Below are positions 25,119-60,102 of a stretch of 64,000 bases of DNA, in pieces. The stretch comes from Mobula birostris (taxonomy: Eukaryota). The stretch is taken from NCBI RefSeq assembly GCF_030028105.1, contig NC_092397.1, forward strand, positions 21,276,630-21,340,629, written 5' to 3'. Both the position numbers and the translations under genes were made by a program. Each line of letters opens with the position of its first letter. Position 1 is the stretch's first letter. The notes beneath the pieces were generated by a model. The model did no database searches. It was given only the letters and a program-made list of their open reading frames with translations, and was not told the origin of the DNA.

Positions 25119-26235
25119 CTAGCAACAGGAATTCTGCAGATGCTGGAAATTCAAGCAACAAACATAAAAGTTGCTAGTGAACGCAGCAGGCCAGGCAGCA
25201 TCTCTAGGAAGAGGTGCAGTCGATGTTTCAGGCCAAGACCCTTCGTCAGGACTAACTGAAGGAAGAGTGAGTAAGGGATTTGAAAGTTGGAGGGGGAGGG
25301 GGAGATCCAAAATGATAGGAGAAGACAGGAGGGGGAGGGATGGAGCCAAGAGCTGGACAGGTGATAGGCAAAAGGGATACGACAGGATCATGGGACAGGA
25401 GGTCCGGGAAGAAAGACAAGGAGGGTGTGGGGGGGGGTACCTAGAGGATGGGCAAGGGGTATATTCAGAGTGACAGAGTGAGAAAAAGGGGAGAGAGAGA
25501 AAGAATGTGTGTATAAAAATAAGTAACAGATAGGGTACGAGGGGGAGGTGGGGCATTAGCGGAAGTTAGAGAAGTCGATGTTCATGCCATCAGGTTGGAG
25601 GCTACCCAGACGGAATATAAGGTGTTGTTCCTCTAACCTGAGTGTGGCTTCATCTTTAAAGTAGAGGAGGCCGTGGATAGACATGTCAGAATGGGAATGG
25701 GATGTGGAATTAAAACGTGTGGTCACTGGGAGATCCTGCTTTCTCTGGCGGACAGAGCGTAGGTGTTCAGCAAAGCATCTCCCAGTCTGTGTCGGGTCTC
25801 GCCAATATACAAAAGGCCACATCGGGAGCACCGGACGCAGTATATCACCCCAGCCGACTCACAGGTGAAGTGTTGCCTCACCTGGAAGGACTGCTTGGGG
25901 CCCTGAATGGTGGTAAGGAAGGAAGTGTAAGGGCATGTGTAGCACTTGTTCCGCTTACACGGATAAGTGCCAGGAGGGAGATCAGTAGGGAGGGATGGGG
26001 GTGACGAATGGACAAGGGAGTCACGTAGGGAGCAATCCCTGTGGAATACAGGGTGGGGGGAGGGAAAGATGTGCTTAGTGTTGGGATCCCGTTGGAGGTG
26101 GTGGAAGTTACGGAGAATAATGTGTTGGACCCGGAGGCTGGTGGGGTGGTAGGTGAGCACCAGGGGAACCCTATTCCTAGTGGGGTGGTGGGAGGATGGA
26201 GTGAGAGCAGATGTACGTGAAATGGGGGAGATGTA
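25119..26235 (-). mobile_element. Penelope-like element 3' part (GIY-YIG endonuclease plus terminal repeat with hammerhead)
   Basis: FTCESAGVIYCVRCSRCGLLYIGETR GIY-YIG motif; GMNIDFSNFR stop; hammerhead motif at 25218-25253. Confidence 0.93.
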
Positions 26236-26239
26236 TCAG

Positions 26240-28410
26240 TATTACAATTGAACAAAGAGAACTATGGTGCTGTGAGGGAGGAGCTGGCCAAAGTTCAGTG
26301 GAACAATATCCTAGCAGGGATGACAGTGGAAAAGCAATGGCAGTGTTTCTGGGAATAATGCGGAAGGTGCAGGATCAGTTCATTCTAAAGAGGAAGGAAG
26401 ATCCTGAGGGGAGTAAGGGGAGGCATAGCTGACAAGGGAAGTAATGGACAGTATAAAAATAAAAGAGAAGTATAACATAGCAAAGATGAGTGGGAAGCTG
26501 GAGGATTGGGAAACTTTTAAAGAGCAACAGAAGGTAACTAAAAAGGCAATACGCGGAGAAAAAATGAGGTACGAAGATAAACTAGCCAAGAATATAAAGG
26601 AGGATAGTAAAAGCTTCTTTAGGTATGTGAAAAGGAAAAAAAAAAATAGTTAAGACCAAAATTGGGCCCTTGAAGACAGAAACGGGTGAATTTATTATGG
26701 GGAACAAGGAAATGGCAGACGAGTTGAACAGGTACTTTGGATCTGTCTTCACTGGAGAAGACACAAACAATCTCCCAGATATAATAGTGGCCAAAGGACC
26801 TAGGGTAATGGATGAAATGAAGGAAATTTATATCAGGCAGGAAATATTGTTGGATAGACTGTTGGGTCTGAAGGCTGATAAGTCCCCGGGACCTGATGGT
26901 CTGCATCCCAGGGTACTTAAGGAGGTGGCTTTAGAAATCGTGGATGCATTGGTAATCATTTTCCAATGTTCTATAGATTCAGGATCAGTTCCTGTGGATT
27001 GGAGGGTGGCTAATGTTGTCCCTATCTTCAAGAAGGGAAGAAGAGAGAAAACAGGGAATTATAGACCAGTTAGCCTGACGTCTGTGGTGGGAAAGATGCT
27101 GGAGTCAATTATAAAAGATGAAATTATGACACATCTGGATAGCAGTAACAGGATCGGTCCGAGTCAGCATGGACATACAAAGGGGAAATCGTGTGTGACT
27201 AATCTTCTGGAATTTTTTGAGGATGTATCTATGAAAATGGACAAGGGAGATCCAGTGGATGCAGTGTACCTGGACTTTCAGAAAGCCTTTCATAAAGTCC
27301 CACAAAGGAGATTATTGGGCAAAATTAGGGCATGTGGCATTGGGGGCAGAGTACTGACATGGATTGAAAATTGGCTGGCTGACAGAAAACAAAGAGTGGC
27401 GATTAACGGGTCCCTTTCGGAATGACAGGCAGTGATGAGTGGGTTACCGCAGGGTTCAGTGATGGGACCACAGCTGTTTACAATATATATTAATGATTTA
27501 GATGAGGGAATTATAAGTAACATTAGCAAATTTGCCGATGACACAAAGCTGGGTGGCAGTGTGAAATGTGAGGAGGATGTTATGAGAATGCAGGGTGACT
27601 TGGACAGGCTGGTTGAGTGGGCAGATGCATGGCAGATGCAGCTTAATGTGGATAAATGTGAGGTTATCCACTTTGGTGGTAAGAACAGGAAGGCAGATTA
27701 TTATCTAAATGGAGTCAAGTTAGGAAAAGGGGAAGTACAACGAGATCGAGGTGTCCTTGTACATCAGTCACTGAAAGCAAGCATGCAAGTACAGCAGGCA
27801 GTGAAGAAAGCTCATGGCATGCTGGCCTTCATAACAAGGGGAATTGAGTATAAGTCCTTCTGCAATTGTACAGGGTCCTGGTGAGACCACACCTGGAATA
27901 CTGTGTGCAGATTTGGTCTCCAAATTTGAGGAAGGACATTCTTGCTATTGAGGGAGTGCAGCGTAGGTTCACAAGGTTAATTCTCGGGATGGCGATGTTG
28001 AAAGATTGGAGCGACTGGGCTTGTATACTCTGGAATTTAGAACGCTGAAAGGGGATCTTATTGAAACATATAAGATTAAGGGATTGGACACGCTGGAGGC
28101 AGGAAGCATGTTCCTGCTGATGGGTGAGTCCAGAACCAGAGGCCACAGTTTAAGAATAAGGGGTAGGCCATTTAGACCGGAGTTGAGTGGTGGATATATG
28201 GAATGCCTGCCCCAGAAGGCTGTGGAGGCCAAGTCTCTGGATGCTTTCAAGAAAGAGATGGATAGAGTTCTTAACAATAGCGGAATCAAAGGTTATGGGG
28301 GTAAGGCAGGAACTGGATACTGATTGTGGATGATCAGCCATGATCACAGTGAATGGCGGTGCTGGCTCGACGGGTCGAATGGCCTACTCCTGCACCTATT
28401 GTCTATTGTA
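26240..28410 (+). mobile_element. CR1 LINE ORF2 fragment plus 3' UTR
   Basis: ORFs 26670-27425 and 27432-27884 with KSPGPDGLHPRVLKE, NYRPVSLTS and KFADDTKL. Confidence 0.95.
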
Positions 28411-28934: not shown

Positions 28935-29451
<517 letters not shown>

Positions 29452-29484
29452 AAATCTCCCACTTCCTCCCGAGCACGAAACAAC

Positions 29485-29500
29485 GGCTCTTTTAAGAGCC
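29485..29500 (+). terminator. Histone 3' stem-loop (H4)
   Basis: GGCTCTTTTAAGAGCC followed by ACCCA. Confidence 0.97.
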
Positions 29501-29849
29501 ACCCACCGCCTCACGGACGGAGCCGTATCCACACACAAAATTTTGATTATTTTTTATCGATACATTCACCTGAGTTACATTTGCAACAGATTAATCGGTT
29601 CCGCTTGAAATCAACCTGCGAACCTGCCTTTCCAGTCCGTGATTACAATAAAATCTCTGAATTCATTAAGGTCGATCTTAAACCTTTTATCCGTCTCGGA
29701 CAGAAATAAGTTCACTCGTTTAGAGAAACGATTCCGTAATTATGCATTTAAATCTTAACTGAGGGATTTAGATATTAAATAAAAGTGAAATTGTATAATC
29801 CGTGATAGAATTAATTGCAAATAAAAATAATCAGGCAGTTGCTGGCTGC

Positions 29850-30557
<708 letters not shown>

Positions 30558-30586
30558 ACCCGGCCTCCACACCAAGCACAAGAAAA

Positions 30587-30602
30587 GGCTCTTTTAAGAG
30601 CC
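30587..30602 (+). terminator. Histone 3' stem-loop (H3)
   Basis: GGCTCTTTTAAGAGCC followed by a purine-rich HDE (aaaggaaagggc). Confidence 0.97.
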
Positions 30603-31299
30603 ACTACCACAGCAAAGGAAAGGGCAGTCGCTTGCTGATCATTGTATTATCGTAGTGACGATCTGCCTTCCTGATGGGGTTATTTGGTTTTGCACTGATT
30701 GACCGCGATCATCAGCTGTTCTGTGCCGTCAGGTTGATTCAGCGAGGGAAAGGAGATGAACGTGCTCCCTCCCCGTCAGGGTCTTACCTGGCCCTTCATT
30801 TCTCCCACAAACCTGGCATGTACAGCTGCTGCGGCTGTTACCGTTTTGTTTGCTTTGGACATGCCCGGCTGTCCTTGCAGTGGGAGCATGTGGTCGCGCT
30901 GGGAACAGAGGGGGGTTTCCTGGAGCGGTGATCCCAGGCAATAGTGGTTATTGTTTTTTTTAATTTGCTTTCCCTCTCTTGTACATATTAGATGTTGGTG
31001 TTTTGTGTGAATAAACTTATGTAGTTTTGTGGCTGGTAACTGAATGAAGGTCAGTCGGCAATGTCACGGGGTAGTTTATCATATATCTTCCCCCTGCAGT
31101 CCATCCCCAGAGACAGATCCCTCTCTCAAGACGCCCCCTCCCCTCTCACATGGGTTTCAGCAGTTCCCAATCAACTCAGCAGAATCGGGCTTTGGGGTGT
31201 GAGGCGCGTAATCTCCGCTGGAGTCAGTGTCTCAGTCACTCTCTCCCGGCATGGGAGAAGGGACTGGGTTTACACCTACATCACATGTCTCTCAATCTC

Positions 31300-32350: not shown

Positions 32351-32757
32351 TCGAAAACTCTCCAATTCCAATTAAAATCGGACATTCCGGAGACTCGGAC
32401 TGGCCCCTGTCCGTCACTGAGGCCGCAAAGTTCGCTGGAAATAAAAGTTTATTCAAGATTAAAGGCAGCTCTTTCTATTTTAACCCGTTTCATTATTGCG
32501 CTGCCCGCGATCTCTCTCCCGATCAGTGACCTGTTCTCTGCTTTTGGACTGTAATACTAAAAGTAACGAAAACTTTGCGGTTTATTCCAGCTTCAGGACT
32601 GAGTGGGAGAGTGAGGCGATTCCGTAACAGAGAATTTTTTTTCATTTTGTTTATCAGACGCTGGGAAATCCTACGATATGTTCGGACTCACAAACACAGC
32701 AACAGTAGTCTAAACCGCCCGCCCCTTTTACACACTCTCTCTGACATAATGCTCCCA

Positions 32758-32902
32758 GCAACACACACAGAAAATGCTGGTGAACGCAGCAGGCCAGGCA
32801 GCATCTATAGGAAGAGGTACAGTCGACGTTTCGGGCCGGGACCCTTCGTCAGGACTCTGGTGCTAAATGTGGCCTGACTTGCTGGGTTCCTCCAGCATTT
32901 TG
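32758..32902 (-). mobile_element. Short Penelope-terminus element, partly palindromic
   Basis: acacacagaaaatgctggtgaacgcagcaggcc...hammerhead...ggcctgacttgctgggttcctccagcatttt. Confidence 0.85.
32821..32856 (-). ncRNA. Minimal type I hammerhead ribozyme motif (intact core)
   Basis: RNA: AGUC-CUGACGA-A-GGGU(CCCG)GCCC-GAAAC-GUC^GACU; stems I and II, conserved core, palindromic ACGU stem III. Confidence 0.75.
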
Positions 32903-37215: not shown

Positions 37216-37839
37216 TTGTGACGCTGATGTTAGGTAGTGTTGATAGTCCAGTTGGAAATCAGTTAGTGGAGAGGAGGAAGCTGTTCCTAAAACATTACGT
37301 GTGCGTTCAGGTTCCTGTACCTCTTCTCCAATGGTAATAATAAAAAGGGGGCACATCCTGGATGGTCCAGAGAGCAGAGCAGATACAGACCTGACATGGG
37401 AGGTTTGAAGGGGAAAGTGAATCCATTTCATGGGACTGGTGAAGCAGAGTGACTTGGAGAATTGATCAACAGGAGACATGGCCTTTCAGGAGAGCAGCAG
37501 CAGCTGGGTCTGTGATTCTGATGTACAGCAGGGGAGGGTGGAGACAAAGAGATCTGTAATCACTGGATTACTCCTGATGCCAAGTGCTGGTAAGGACAGG
37601 GCAGGTGGATGTGAGGATGAGGAGCTGGTACAGGAGAACAGGTTCAGGTTTCCAGCCACTGGGATCTCTGCTGGGGCAGAGGTGACCTGTAGAAGTGGGA
37701 CCGGCTGCACTTGAACCAGCCGGGTCAAATATGGGCAGATTTGTTAATGTGTCGCAGGAGGATTGAAATGATTCATCAGTGGGTTGGCAACCAAAATAGT
37801 GGTGTGGCAGATGATAGCCCTTTACTCTGCCATGATAGT

Positions 37840-38082
37840 GGCTCCTAAAAGAGCCTTTCGTTGTGTTTAGTGCCAGGGCCGGGTTCAGGCGGGCTCCCCA
37901 CAGAAGCACCAAGCCAGCTGGATGGTAACTTACTCGGCGTGGATGGCGCACAGGTTAGTGTCCTCGAAGAGCCCCACCAGGTAAGCCTCGCTCACCTCCT
38001 GCAGGGCCATGATGGCCGAGCTCTGGAAACACAGATGGGTTTTGAAGTCCTGAGCGATCTCCCGCACCAGGTGCTGGAAAGC
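37840..38082 (-). pseudogene. H3: Histone H3 pseudogene (3' half plus stem-loop)
   Basis: Reverse strand [63 protein letters not shown]: premature stop and loss of the MPKDI segment; stem-loop GGCTCTTTTAGGAGCC at 37840-37855; 5' half replaced by a LINE. Confidence 0.93.
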
Positions 38083-43504: not shown

Positions 43505-45210
43505 TTGGATGTCCAGTCCCTATATACTTCCATCCCGCATCAGGAAGGTCTCAAAGCTCTCCATTTCTTTTTGGATTCCAGACCTAACCAGTTCCCCTCT
43601 ACCACCACTCTGCTCCGTCTAGCGGAATTAGTCCTTACTCTTAATAATTTCTCCTTTGGTTCCTCCCACTTCCTCCAAACTAAAGGTGTAGCCATGGGCA
43701 CCCGTATGGGTCCTAGCTATGCCTGCCTTTTTGTTGGCTTTGTGGAACAATCTATGTTCCAAACCTATTCTGGTATCTGTCCCCCACTTTTCCTTCGCCA
43801 CATTTACGACTGCATTGGCGCTGCTTCCCGCACGCATACTGAGCTTGTTGACTTCCTCAACTTTGTCTCTATCTCTGGAGACAGCTTATCTACTGATGTC
43901 TACTATAAGCCAACTGACTCTCACAGCTATCTGGACTATTCCTCTTCTCACCCTGTCCCTTGCAAAAACGCCATCCCCTTCTCGCAATTCCTCCGTCTCC
44001 GCCGCATCTGCTCTCAGGATGAGGCTTTTCATTCTAGGACAAGGGAGATGTCTTCCTTTTTTAAAGAAAGGGGCTTCCCTTCCTCCACCATCAACTCGGC
44101 TCTCAAACGCCTCTCCCCCATTTCACGCACATCTGACATCTGCTCTCACTCCATCCTCCCGCCCCCCCCCCGTAGGAATAGGGTTCTCCTTGTCCTCACC
44201 TACCACCCCACCAACCCGAGTCCAACATATAATTCTCCTTAACTTCCGCCACCTCCGACTGGATTCCACCACTAAGCACATCTTTCCGTCCTCCCCCCCA
44301 CCAGGGATCGCTTCCTACGTGACTCCCTTGTCCATTCATCCCCCCATCCCTCCCCTCTGAACTCCCTCCTGGCACTTATCCTTGTAAGTGGAACAAGTGC
44401 TACACATGCCCTTACACTTCCTCCCTTACCACCATTCAGGGCCCCAGACAGTCCTTCCAGGTGAGGCGACACTTCACCTGTGAGTCAGCTGGGGTGATAT
44501 ACTGCGTCCGGTGCTCCCGATGTGGCCTTTTATATATTGGCGAGACCCGACGCAGACTGGGAGATTGTTTCGCTGAACACCTACGCTCTGTCTGCCAGAG
44601 AAAGCAGGATCTCCCAGTGGCCACACATTTTAATTCCACGTCTCATTCCCATTCTGACATGTCTATACACGGCCCCCTCTACTGTCAAGATGAAGCCACA
44701 CTCAGGTTGGAGGAACAACACCTTGTATTCTGTCTGGGTAGCCTCCAACCTGATGGCATGAACATCGACTTCTCTAACTTCCGCTAATGCCCCACCTTCC
44801 ACGTGTACCCCATCCGTTATTTTTTTATATACACACATTCTTTTTCTCCCTCTCCTTTTTCTCCCTCTGTCCCCCTCACTATCCCCCTTGCCCATCCTCT
44901 GGTTTCCGCCCTCCCCCTTTTCTTTCTCCCTGGGCCTCCTGTCCCATGATCCTCTCATATCCCTTCTGCCAATCAACTGTCCAGCTCTTGGCTCCATCCC
45001 TTCCCTCCTGTCTTCTCCTATCATTTCAGATCTCCCCCTCCCCCTTTCAAATCTCTTACTAGCTCTTCTTTCACTTTGTCCTGACAAAGGATCTCGGCCC
45101 GAAACATCGACTGTATCTCTTCCTTGAGATGCTGCCTGGCCTGCTGTGTTCACCAGCAACTTTTATGCGTGTTGCTTGAAATTCCAGCATCTGCAGATTT
45201 CCTCGTGTTA
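43505..45210 (+). mobile_element. 5'-truncated Penelope-like element (RT plus GIY-YIG)
   Basis: DVQSLYTSIPH, QTKGVAMGTRMGPSYA, TDVYYKPTDSHSYL and VIYCVRCSRCGLLYIGET; mutated hammerhead at 45078-45112; flanking duplication ccacagagaaa (43494-43504 and 45214-45224). Confidence 0.95.
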
Positions 45211-49230: not shown

Positions 49231-49998
49231 ATTCAATGTGCCCAGGAGATTCTTCTCAATCAGTATTTCGAAGTTCCTACCAAAGACAGGACAACACTGA
49301 ACCGCTTTGTGGGAAATCAGACTCGACAAGTGACGGGTCCTTCGGTGCTGGAGACCTTGATCCACCCACCTACCCCCTCCCTGGCACAAACCAAAGTCTG
49401 TTCTCAGAGCGACCCACCGCCTGACAGAGGGAGCCTCTCGGGAAATCTGACCAAACTCCCTCGCAAAATATTCATTTATATTTCAGAGACCTGGGTGGAC
49501 GAGATTTCCAGTAAATACTGTCAGTTCCACAGGGTAAATGCACTTTTGTAGATAAATGTAAATATTATTGTTCTGTGAGGCGGTGGGAATTCTCATGAGG
49601 CAATGAACAGGCGATGTTCCCGCCTGCTGCACACCGGAACCGACACGGGTAACCCGCAATGTCAAACCCAGACAACGCGGATTTAGGTCATGAAGAGCGG
49701 AGTCGTACAATGATCGGATATTAAATTCTCTGTCCGGGGGCTGACTCTGGAAATTAATTTCACGACCCTAGGCCGAGTGAACCCGCTGACTCTCCGCAAG
49801 GGGAGAGCTGCATTGCGCCAGCAGAGAGGGGAAATGAGACAGGACCGAAGCGGACCGATTTCTGTGCAGATAGATATCGGTTTACTTCGCGGAAGAAACG
49901 TGACGGACATTGAACTGTCGTGACTGTGACAGATACAGAGTCCAGTTACTCTGAACGGAAATCACCCGCTGCTCAGCTCTTCCACAGGCACTGTGAGT

Positions 49999-50014
49999 GG
50001 CTCTGAAAAGAGCC
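49999..50014 (-). terminator. Histone 3' stem-loop (H2A)
   Basis: Reverse strand GGCTCTTTTCAGAGCC-ACTCA; HDE GGAAGAGCTG. Confidence 0.97.
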
Positions 50015-50044
50015 TTTGGGTAAATAGGTTCAGCTTACGTCGCT

Positions 50045-50428
50045 TCACTTACTGGCACCGCCGGTTTTCTTGGGCAACAGCACGGCCTGGATATTGGGTA
50101 ACACACCGCCCTGAGCGATAGTCACGCCTCCCAGCAGCTTGTTGAGCTCCTCGTCGTTGCGGACGGCCAGCTGCAGGTGTCTGGGGATGATGCGGGTTTT
50201 CTTATTGTCCCGGGCCGCGTTGCCGGCCAATTCGAGGATTTCGGCTGTCAGATACTCGAGCACAGCAGCCAGGTAGACCGGGGCTCCAGCACCCACCCGC
50301 TCAGCATAGTTGCCCTTTCTTAGGAGTCTGTGAACCCGGCCGACCGGGAACTGCAGTCCAGCCCGAGACGAGCGAGATTTGGCCTTGGACCGAACTTTGC
50401 CAGCGGTGCCTTTTCCACGTCCAGACAT
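50045..50428 (-). CDS. H2A: Histone H2A (replication-dependent), 127 aa
   Basis: [31 protein letters not shown]...[12 protein letters not shown]. The start is the ATG at 50428; the longer track ORF runs through the promoter. TATAAAA at ~50494-50500. Confidence 0.98.
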
Positions 50429-50489
50429 TTCCACAGTCACAACAATTGCTCCACCGAGAATGAAAGAATGTTCACCCCGCCCCAACTCA

Positions 50490-50690
50490 CCTTTTTTATA
50501 CCTTCTTTGAGAATGCAAACTGATGTTTGTGATTGGTGTAACCGTGCTTATTCTCATTGGTGAAGAGAAACGTCCCAATCGAAGAGCTGCCTTAATCACC
50601 AATCAGCAGTCCGTAAAGATAGAAGCGCGGAAAGTAACCGTGTCCTCCCCAAAGTACACTGAAATTTCGAAAAAGCCCGCCAAAAAAATA
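50490..50690 (-). promoter_or_regulatory. H2A promoter
   Basis: TATA box, octamer-like ATGCAAAC, four CCAAT/ATTGG boxes, TTGGCGG...TTCGAA at 50666-50683. Confidence 0.75.
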
Positions 50691-51310
50691 AATCTCTTGT
50701 TCAAATTTAATCAGAAATTAAATAATTGCTGATCTGTTTGACGATTGAGTGTTCGTACTTCCCCGTTACTGAAACCGGGCACATTTAATGCAAGTGTAGT
50801 TGATATTGAAATGTCTGGGAACTCAATTCTCTAATTTCTTTCAACCCGTAACGGAACCGAGTAAAACTGAATCTCAGCTTCTGCCCGCGGTCGGTCATTG
50901 TGTAAACGTTATCAGGTTATGGACAAACGGCTCTTCTCAAACTGTGATCAGCGGCTAGTCTGCAATTTAAAAATGTTCTATGAAACAATCATGAACTCGT
51001 TCAGGCCTCGCATTGAAATAATATTCAGAGAAGTTACCCAACTGTAACTAATAAACTCCTGAACCCACAGCTAAAACAGCAACGGCAGCAATCCTCCGCT
51101 CGACATGGATACCGGCAGGGGCGGACTGATGAGGATGGGAAGGTAACAAGTCCGTGTCAGTGCAGTGGGAGGAATGTAAAACACCGGGATTATACGGAGA
51201 TGAACCGGATACTCCAACCCTACCTTAGCTCTTGTAAAAGACACCAGACATAAAATGTGTGCAATTTAGTGTCTACATTTTAGTACAACCCTCTTAGTGA
51301 AATTGTGAGT

Positions 51311-51680
51311 GGCTCTTAAAAGAGCCGTTTTGTTTTCGATCATCGCACTGGAGAGCTTTACTTGGAGCTGGTGTATTTGGCAGCAGGCGCACGGCGGTCT
51401 GGATCTCCCGTGAGGTGATGGTTGACCGCTTGTTGTAGTGGGCCAGGCGGGAAGCCTCGCCCCCGATTCTCTCGAAGATATCGTTGACGAACGAGTTCAT
51501 GATGCTCATGGCCTTGGAGGAGATGCCAGTATCGGGGTGAACCTGCTTCATCACTTTGTAGATGTAGATGGAGTAACTCTCCTTCCTCAGCCTCTTGCGC
51601 TTCTTCCCTGCCTTGCCTGCTGGTTTGGACAAAACTTTCTTGGTGCCCTTCTTCGGAACGGATTTCGCAGGCTCAGGCAT
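51311..51680 (-). pseudogene. H2B: Histone H2B with a 52-nt frameshifting deletion
   Basis: MPEPAKS...[10 protein letters not shown] jumps directly to CC AAA TAC ACC AGC TCC AAG TAA, losing [17 protein letters not shown]. Stem-loop intact at 51311-51326; promoter has TATTTAA and ATTAGCAT. Confidence 0.88.
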
Positions 51681-59145: not shown

Positions 59146-59683
59146 TTGCTGTTGAAATTAAACAGGTTTGTTTGTCGACCCTTTACCCCCGTTACTGGAG
59201 TCCGACACATTTAAACCGGGTGTAGTTAATACTGCGATGGTGTCTGGGAACTTAGTTCACCGATTTCTTTCAATTGATAAACGATTGGAATAAAACAGAT
59301 TCTCAACTTCTGTTCGCGGTCGGTCATTGTGAACGGGTCGCCCTTCAGAAAGTGGAGCTTTAACAAATACTCTGAACGAACCGTGACTGTGTTCAGCTCT
59401 CGCGTTGGAATGGGGTTAAGAGAAGTAACCAAAATGGGACAAAGCTTAAGGAACCGCATTCTCCAGGGCAATTAAACCAGAAACAATTAGTGTCCTCTTC
59501 AGGGAAATATGATGAACGAGAGAAAACGACGGGGAAGGGGTGCGTAACGATTCCGTGCTGTGCAGTCGGTTGGGATATAACAGAGAAATCAGACTATACT
59601 GAGCAGTGGACAGCAAGCTCTGATTAACGGAGATAAGATTCTGAAATGAGATCAAAAATAACTCTTTTAATGAAGCCGTGAGT

Positions 59684-60102
59684 GGCTTTTAAAAGAGCCT
59701 TTGATTTTCTGGTTTGTTTTGTCAGTGAACTTGGAGCTGGTGTACTTGGTCACCGCCTTTGTCCCTTCGGACACGGCGTGCTTGGCCAGCTCCCCAGGTA
59801 GCAGCAGCCGCACGGCGGTCTGGATCTCCCGGGAGCTGATGGTGGACCGCTTGTTGTAATGGGCCAGGCGGGAAGCTTCGCCCGCGATGCGCTCGAAAAT
59901 ATCGTTGACGAATGAATTCATGATGCTCATGGCCTTGGAGGAGATGCCGGTGTCGGGGTGAACCTGCTTCATCACTTTGTAGATGTAGATGGCGTAAGTC
60001 TTCCTTCCTCGACCTCTTGCGCTTCTTGCCAGTCTTGCTCGCTGGTTTGGACAAAGCTTTCTTGGCGCCCTTCTTGGGAGCGGGTTTCGCTGGATCCGGC
60101 AT
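59684..60102 (-). pseudogene. H2B: Histone H2B with a +1 frameshift, lost stop codon and mismatched stem-loop
   Basis: ATG at 60102 ([12 protein letters not shown]...KRSRKE), then one extra base at ~60000; the rest of H2B is intact in another frame; native stop reads TTC; stem-loop GGCTCTTTTAAAAGCC at 59684-59699. Confidence 0.88.

Follow-up and report, generated by a model that had tools for sequence, protein, structure and literature searches.

A minimal hammerhead motif upstream of histone H1 in Mobula birostris belongs to a Penelope-like retrotransposon and is most likely a neutral passenger

Features of the locus

The stretch analyzed here (the window) comprises 64,000 nucleotides of the Mobula birostris genome and includes a histone H1 gene and, upstream of it on the same strand, a hammerhead ribozyme motif lying among retrotransposon remnants (Table 1). 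At least 45 near-identical H1 genes occur in large duplicated histone units (G000:C33:19-43 Mb), and separate H1 groups were found on C13 and C34. The window also carries H4 and H3 genes on the plus strand, H2A and two H2B-like genes (both apparently irregular at one end) on the minus strand, and a GUC-anticodon tRNA gene (window 29140-30627, 49974-51680, 59660-60102, and 2860-2930), as well as a truncated H3 fragment with a histone stem-loop (window 37814-38080, minus strand) that is cut off by a LINE-like piece.

Table 1. Features of the H1 locus and of the Penelope-like element copies in the window
Feature	Position in window	Strand	Remarks
Second broken copy of the parent element	25123..26250 (5' edge approximate)	-	hammerhead at 25218-25253, helix III palindrome lost
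H1 3' stem-loop	31484-31527		
Histone H1 gene, 211 aa	31560..32195	-	PF00538
Old-tail remnant and TGTGTC target at the right junction	32740..32756	-	empty site GTGTGTC/AG in distant loci
5'-truncated young-subfamily copy, hammerhead plus 64-nt tail	32757..32856	-	98-99% identical to dispersed copies L002 and L006; paralog alignment
Minimal type I hammerhead motif of the Penelope-like element pseudo-LTR	32821..32856	-	descriptor; same motif in long-ORF loci
Inverted arm and spacer of the older insertion, old-subfamily tail reversed	32857..32901	+	private change CTGACTTGCTG
Parent-element copy, longer but broken: partial RT, zinc-finger linker, GIY-YIG end, 3' UTR	43530..45209 (left edge approximate)	+	decayed hammerhead at 45077-45112

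Anatomy of the hammerhead motif

Read on the minus strand, the motif has a 4-bp stem I (AGUC/GACU), a 4-bp stem II (GGGU/GCCC), the core boxes CUGACGA and GAAA, and a UH cleavage site. It also has an unpaired extra A9.1, a G10.1-C11.1 pair, and a palindromic 15.2-16.2 (ACGU), and there is no loop 3. C17 sits at 32825, with the predicted cut between 32825 and 32824, and the 3' end of the motif lies 626 nt from the H1 ATG (32195). Our re-reading agrees with an earlier reading made from the sequence alone (the sequence-only reading) in coordinates, strand, anatomy, and predicted cut, as well as in the distance to H1, which it had put at about 630 nt. It had also singled out this copy as the only one without a core or CpG mutation, which holds among the ∼10 family copies in the window.

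Such a motif could in principle be a chance look-alike, and the loose core pattern on its own does occur at chance level in the window (6 matches versus 8.5 expected). The sequence-only reading had proposed a search with hammerhead models as a check; a scan of Rfam 15 at E ≤10 returned no hammerhead family match, and the full minimal-hammerhead descriptor matched at 32821-32856 and nowhere else in the 64-kb window. Since the descriptor also matched none of 200 dinucleotide shuffles, the motif is not attributable to chance. Its sequence is, moreover, the majority sequence in both old and young subfamilies of the element despite their differing tails, and its pseudo-LTR position is that of published hammerheads of Penelope-like elements (PLEs). 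The chance reading, refuted by this position and by the descriptor test, retains a negligible probability. The motif is a genuine, textbook minimal type I hammerhead, predicted to self-cleave.

The parent Penelope-like element

Upstream of the motif, dispersed copies continue into a 3' UTR and an open frame. A protein search of the genome yielded 61,798 first-look candidates, 150 of which were scored, and in 10/10 loci picked for long frames (746 to 1,014 codons) the hammerhead lies ∼300 nt past the PLE stop codon. Based on the 1,014-codon frame of one such locus (L041), the parent has a single ORF in which a reverse transcriptase (RT) is followed by a GIY-YIG endonuclease (EN), with matches that both fall below the curated cut-offs (Pfam RVT_1, E = 1.6e-5; GIY-YIG, E = 0.0025). 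The linker joining RT to EN reads CKRNKCYTC (CX4CxxC) and agrees with the CX2-5CxxC definition of the Neptune and Nematis clades. In 118 places, the tail that follows the hammerhead runs on into the 5' UTR and the start of the ORF, which is the pseudo-LTR arrangement, and the family shows pseudo-LTR tandems, inverted 5' copies, and 5' truncation. These frames, the hammerhead's position past the stop codon, and the pseudo-LTR tails bear out the proposed Penelope-like origin: the motif at 32821-32856 is the pseudo-LTR hammerhead of an abundant Penelope-like retrotransposon with an RT, a CX4CxxC linker, and a GIY-YIG endonuclease.

The family is variable in its ribozyme. The longest-frame subfamily (L041-L050) has G10.1-U11.1 instead of G-C in 9/10 loci, and the same pair dominates young copies (86 of 129 pairs counted); this change would be expected to weaken a hammerhead. 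Stem changes among the 129 copies, which come mostly from one young subfamily with few old ones, are one-sided only (G-C/G-U and U-G/U-A). We also observed a retrozyme-like array of five tandem 154-nt units (L231:1356-2100; G000:C12:128,936,855-128,937,600), a natural multimer that stands behind an inverted copy and in which each unit starts at the 5' edge of the hammerhead.

Abundance of intact copies

Genome-wide, there are 153 occurrences of the exact 36-mer, 6,548 of a 34-mer that leaves two positions free (0.10 per 64 kb), and 75,046 of the young tail. For comparison with the window, we used random DNA taken as stretches at round coordinates (390 of 400 kb, one all-N 10-kb stretch being left out) and found 59 family copies, 7 of which match the descriptor intact, or ∼1.1 per 64 kb (about one per 60,000 bases). 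Under a stricter test that includes G10.1-C11.1, 2/44 copies from random DNA pass. One intact hammerhead copy in a 64-kb window is therefore average for this genome, and an intact ribozyme near a gene is the default expectation in such genomes.

History of the insertion site

We aligned the site across 46 close H1 loci, namely, 45 matches of at least 91% and one found by DNA, all on one contig (C33), and the element is present in all of them. Thirteen loci, the window included, combine a young tail with the same intact 36-mer. The other 33 carry an old-subfamily copy that reads GAAAU and has lost the helix III palindrome, so that 0/33 are strictly intact, and 14 of them also break stem I. The inverted arm at 32871-32901 is present in all 46 loci, and its private change, CTGACTTGCTG, recurs in the old tail wherever the tract was not replaced (33 loci) and is absent from the young tail, which together indicate that the old state is ancestral. 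In a midpoint-rooted tree built from the flanks only, the 13 young-type loci group as a single clade within the old-type loci, and its sister, L064, is itself old-type. Replacement begins somewhere in the first 8 nt of the hammerhead, a stretch that old and young copies have in common, and ends against the old-tail remnant. The 13 young-type loci and L064 share an 81-nt deletion at window 32902/32903, which took away the target copy on the left and some of the inverted arm. A repeat finder run at the locus reported the short inverted arm and no tandem unit, and the outlying loci L097 and L245 carry an old copy with damaged stem II.

These patterns outline a three-step history. An old copy with an inverted arm sits in a TGTGTC target upstream of one H1 lineage, and the H1 unit bearing it now numbers at least 46 loci, all of them on one chromosome. 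In one sublineage, ∼100 nt, from the hammerhead start to the tail, have been replaced by young-subfamily sequence; the mechanism may have been gene conversion, or else target-primed insertion in which homology guided the joining. The intactness of the motif at 32821-32856 is thus most likely explained by a younger copy overwriting the right half of an older, decayed one. The sequence-only reading had offered a choice between a recent insertion and a retained element, which proves to be a false one: the alignments point to an old insertion that had its right half overwritten by a young copy and was afterward amplified as part of the histone duplicon.

Away from this family, we examined 18 of 28 further H1 matches; 14 have an empty site that reads GTGTGTC/AG, 2 have an old copy, 1 could not be aligned, and 1 has an independent insertion. 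The last (L242, at a C13 H1 locus) is of the same family and in the same TGTGTC target, with the target sequence duplicated on both sides, and has no same-strand hammerhead. A second young copy lies inside the old one at L096, and at L097 another young copy lies closer to the gene in the opposite orientation. These repeated insertions indicate that the site attracts the element, which explains its placement without selection. Contigs from other organisms, which attest presence at the junction and in no case span the whole hammerhead, have the old tail in organisms C, D, and E and the young tail in B and F, and one contig of organism D has an empty site. The spread of old and young tails over organisms B to F indicates that both the insertion and the overwrite predate the species splits. 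The locus therefore offers a clean natural record of one site repeatedly struck and overwritten by the same element.

Prospects for cleavage

In a study of PLE hammerheads (PMC4209133), single minimal motifs showed no cleavage and dimers showed low cleavage. We searched the window for a dimer partner on the same strand; the nearest copies lie 7.6 kb downstream, beyond H1 (the broken parent copy at 25123..26250), and ∼23 kb upstream, and both are defective. With no same-strand partner within 7 kb, the dimer needed for cleavage is unlikely to form in cis. The H1 site holds a single unit, whereas a retrozyme is defined by a tandem of at least two units that each bear a hammerhead. Folding prediction for the monomer pairs the core (−11.9 versus −7.9 kcal/mol), and when the inverted arm is included the predicted stem I probability falls to 0.09-0.16. 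These energies disfavor the active monomer and the active dimer alike, but they ignore tertiary contacts and carry little weight. Unless aided by a second copy or by the protein of the element itself, a lone copy lacking helix III would probably show little cleavage or none, and the natural job of the hammerhead would be in tandem transposon RNA rather than in control of H1.

We also looked for a genomic footprint of cleavage in the 5' boundaries of copies across the genome. The cut site itself had 303 boundaries, compared with 216 at the position four nt upstream and 192 at that four nt downstream; after correction for pattern degeneracy the counts were 1,077 versus 512 and 455, respectively, the upstream control tail being 3 nt shorter. 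The excess at the cut is at most twofold, with no sharp spike. Among 30 inspected cut-site boundaries, 23 were fold-back junctions, which arise there because of microhomology in stem I, and 0/30 copies with the 5' UTR, read by eye, begin at the cut. In young copies (L019-L040, L101-L140, and L141-L200), 12 of 51 5' ends fall in the first 12 nt of the hammerhead versus 9 in the 280 nt upstream, in a search that excluded copies truncated further in. Of the 30 copies with the 5' UTR, 11 begin within the 5' part of the hammerhead. The element RNA may begin at the 5' edge of the hammerhead, or the cDNA may fold back at stem I.

Conservation and possible function at H1

The sequence-only reading had suggested that the ribozyme could cut upstream or read-through RNA entering the H1 promoter. 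As a retained regulator, the hammerhead would do so with the help of the PLE protein or of trans pairing with RNA from other copies, and the overwrite would have restored a failing motif; we consider this quite unlikely. The relevant conservation tests are post hoc, and the paralogs that they compare are nonindependent and exchange sequence. All 12 catalytic-core positions are invariant in 46/46 close loci (for the 33 old-type loci, P ∼0.02 versus flank rates, CpG-adjusted), yet over its full length the hammerhead of the old group is about as variable as its flanks (7 of 36 columns versus 9.8 expected), the helix III palindrome is gone in 33/46 loci, and stem I is broken in 14 of those 33. The young tract is also invariant, with 0/100 variable sites in 12 loci versus 32 private changes at 663 flank sites (Fisher p 0.01; p 0.03 when L063 is included), but its 64-nt nonribozyme tail is as invariant as the hammerhead, for which the result alone is not significant (p 0.18 and 0.07). 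These core and young-tract invariances remain as weak, confounded hints of retention.

The distribution of the element can likewise be read both ways. None of the close C33 loci has lost it and it is present in organisms B to F, as a retained regulator would predict, whereas 14/18 distant H1 loci are without it and stem II is broken in both outlying loci, which count against retention. Protein-assisted cleavage has been reported for another PLE hammerhead (PMC11167929); here, the inverted arm reduces the predicted pairing of stem I, and the truncated H3 fragment, 5 kb away, was the sole histone feature noted on the same strand in the nearby upstream region. The suggested cutting of RNA entering the H1 promoter is left without support: helix III is broken in the majority of close loci, most of the distant loci examined are empty, and there is no dimer partner nearby.

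Domesticated host hammerheads (RECK/HH9-type, Clec2) conserve their structure at the host locus across paralogs and species and, within a host transcript, can fold as monomers by means of helix III and loop contacts. When we looked among the H1 paralogs for conservation of this kind, no old-type locus was strictly intact and most distant loci were empty; the motif beside H1 has no helix III, and its site is upstream of the gene.

The 100-nt tract might instead be kept or refreshed for a reason at the DNA level, either because tens of thousands of near-identical donors repeatedly convert it or because it serves as an upstream promoter-like element facing H1. The equal invariance of tail and hammerhead in the young group, the repeated strikes at the site (L096 and L242), and the pileup of young-copy 5' ends in the first 12 nt of the hammerhead, as if transcripts begin there, are all consistent with this, but the young tract keeps private letters in 12/13 loci, which argues against constant refreshing from outside, and the organism F contig differs at 3/38 tail sites, similar to the flank rate (9/∼100). 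We judge this explanation, too, to be improbable.

The evidence as a whole favors, with high probability, a known kind of element that is most likely a neutral passenger beside H1, intact by way of the overwrite. In the boldest alternative, a transposon hammerhead would have been kept, with its core frozen, upstream of an entire 46-copy H1 family in rays, would have been repaired once by a fresh transposon copy, and would cut upstream RNA together with PLE protein or trans-pairing RNAs, tying H1 expression to transposon activity. We regard that scenario as very unlikely; if retention were true, it would represent a domesticated minimal hammerhead acting at a promoter. The literature searched yielded no specific report of a hammerhead at a histone promoter or of a domesticated minimal hammerhead at any promoter.

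Comparison with known systems

Minimal hammerheads have been described in PLEs, including the Neptune elements of fishes (Cervera and de la Pena 2014; PMC4209133). The motif beside H1 shares with those the core boxes, the unpaired base between positions 9 and 10.1, G10.1-C11.1, the palindromic 15.2-16.2, and a short helix I; like them, it lies in a pseudo-LTR and its family consists mostly of single truncated copies, with thousands per genome described for coelacanth and Xenopus. Helix II differs, with 4 bp here versus 7 to 8 bp in the Schistosoma motifs, and the estimated copy number, tens of thousands of intact copies, is above the cases given in that study. Two of its three supplement files contain no mention of shark, skate, or Callorhinchus, and the literature searched held nothing specific on a shark or ray PLE hammerhead.

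The parent element resembles the endonuclease-bearing (EN+) PLEs of the Neptune/Nematis type, for which a CX2-5CxxC linker between RT and EN is described (Craig et al. 2021; PMC8557442). Both have an RT with a DKG motif, a C-terminal GIY-YIG domain, and this linker, and both show 5' truncation, partial tandems, inverted 5' copies, and an optional tail. The likeness is one of described features rather than of placement in an RT tree, and the longest-frame subfamily here departs from it in having mostly G10.1-U11.1.

In Poseidon of Anolis carolinensis, the hammerhead was found to cut only in the presence of the PLE protein and to be dispensable for insertion, and RNA ends mapping to the cut were absent (Frangieh et al. 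2024; PMC11167929). The arrangement in the ray is similar in that the hammerhead stands at the junction of pseudo-LTR and ORF, copies include sequence beyond the cut site, which implies uncut RNA as the template, and cleavage has no sharp genomic footprint. Poseidon belongs to a different clade, and the hammerhead here lies well upstream of the presumed start codon.

PLE-derived retrozymes have been reported in one cartilaginous fish (bioRxiv 10.64898/2026.07.22.740005). Non-LTR retrozymes (PMC7229834; bioRxiv 10.64898/2026.07.22.740005) have a type I hammerhead and are PLE derived, as here, and the array of five 154-nt units on another contig shows that the family can take a similar form; the copy beside H1 differs in being a single unit without a tandem array.

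In the hybrid Alu elements described in PMC1266357 (citing Kass et al. 1995), replacement or gene conversion provides a parallel to the overwrite. In both cases, an older fixed element has a 3' part with the diagnostic letters of another subfamily; here, the element is a PLE, and segmental duplication of the histone unit made many copies of the hybrid. Overall, the locus adds to the known Penelope-like hammerheads an example from a cartilaginous fish, where copies are very numerous.
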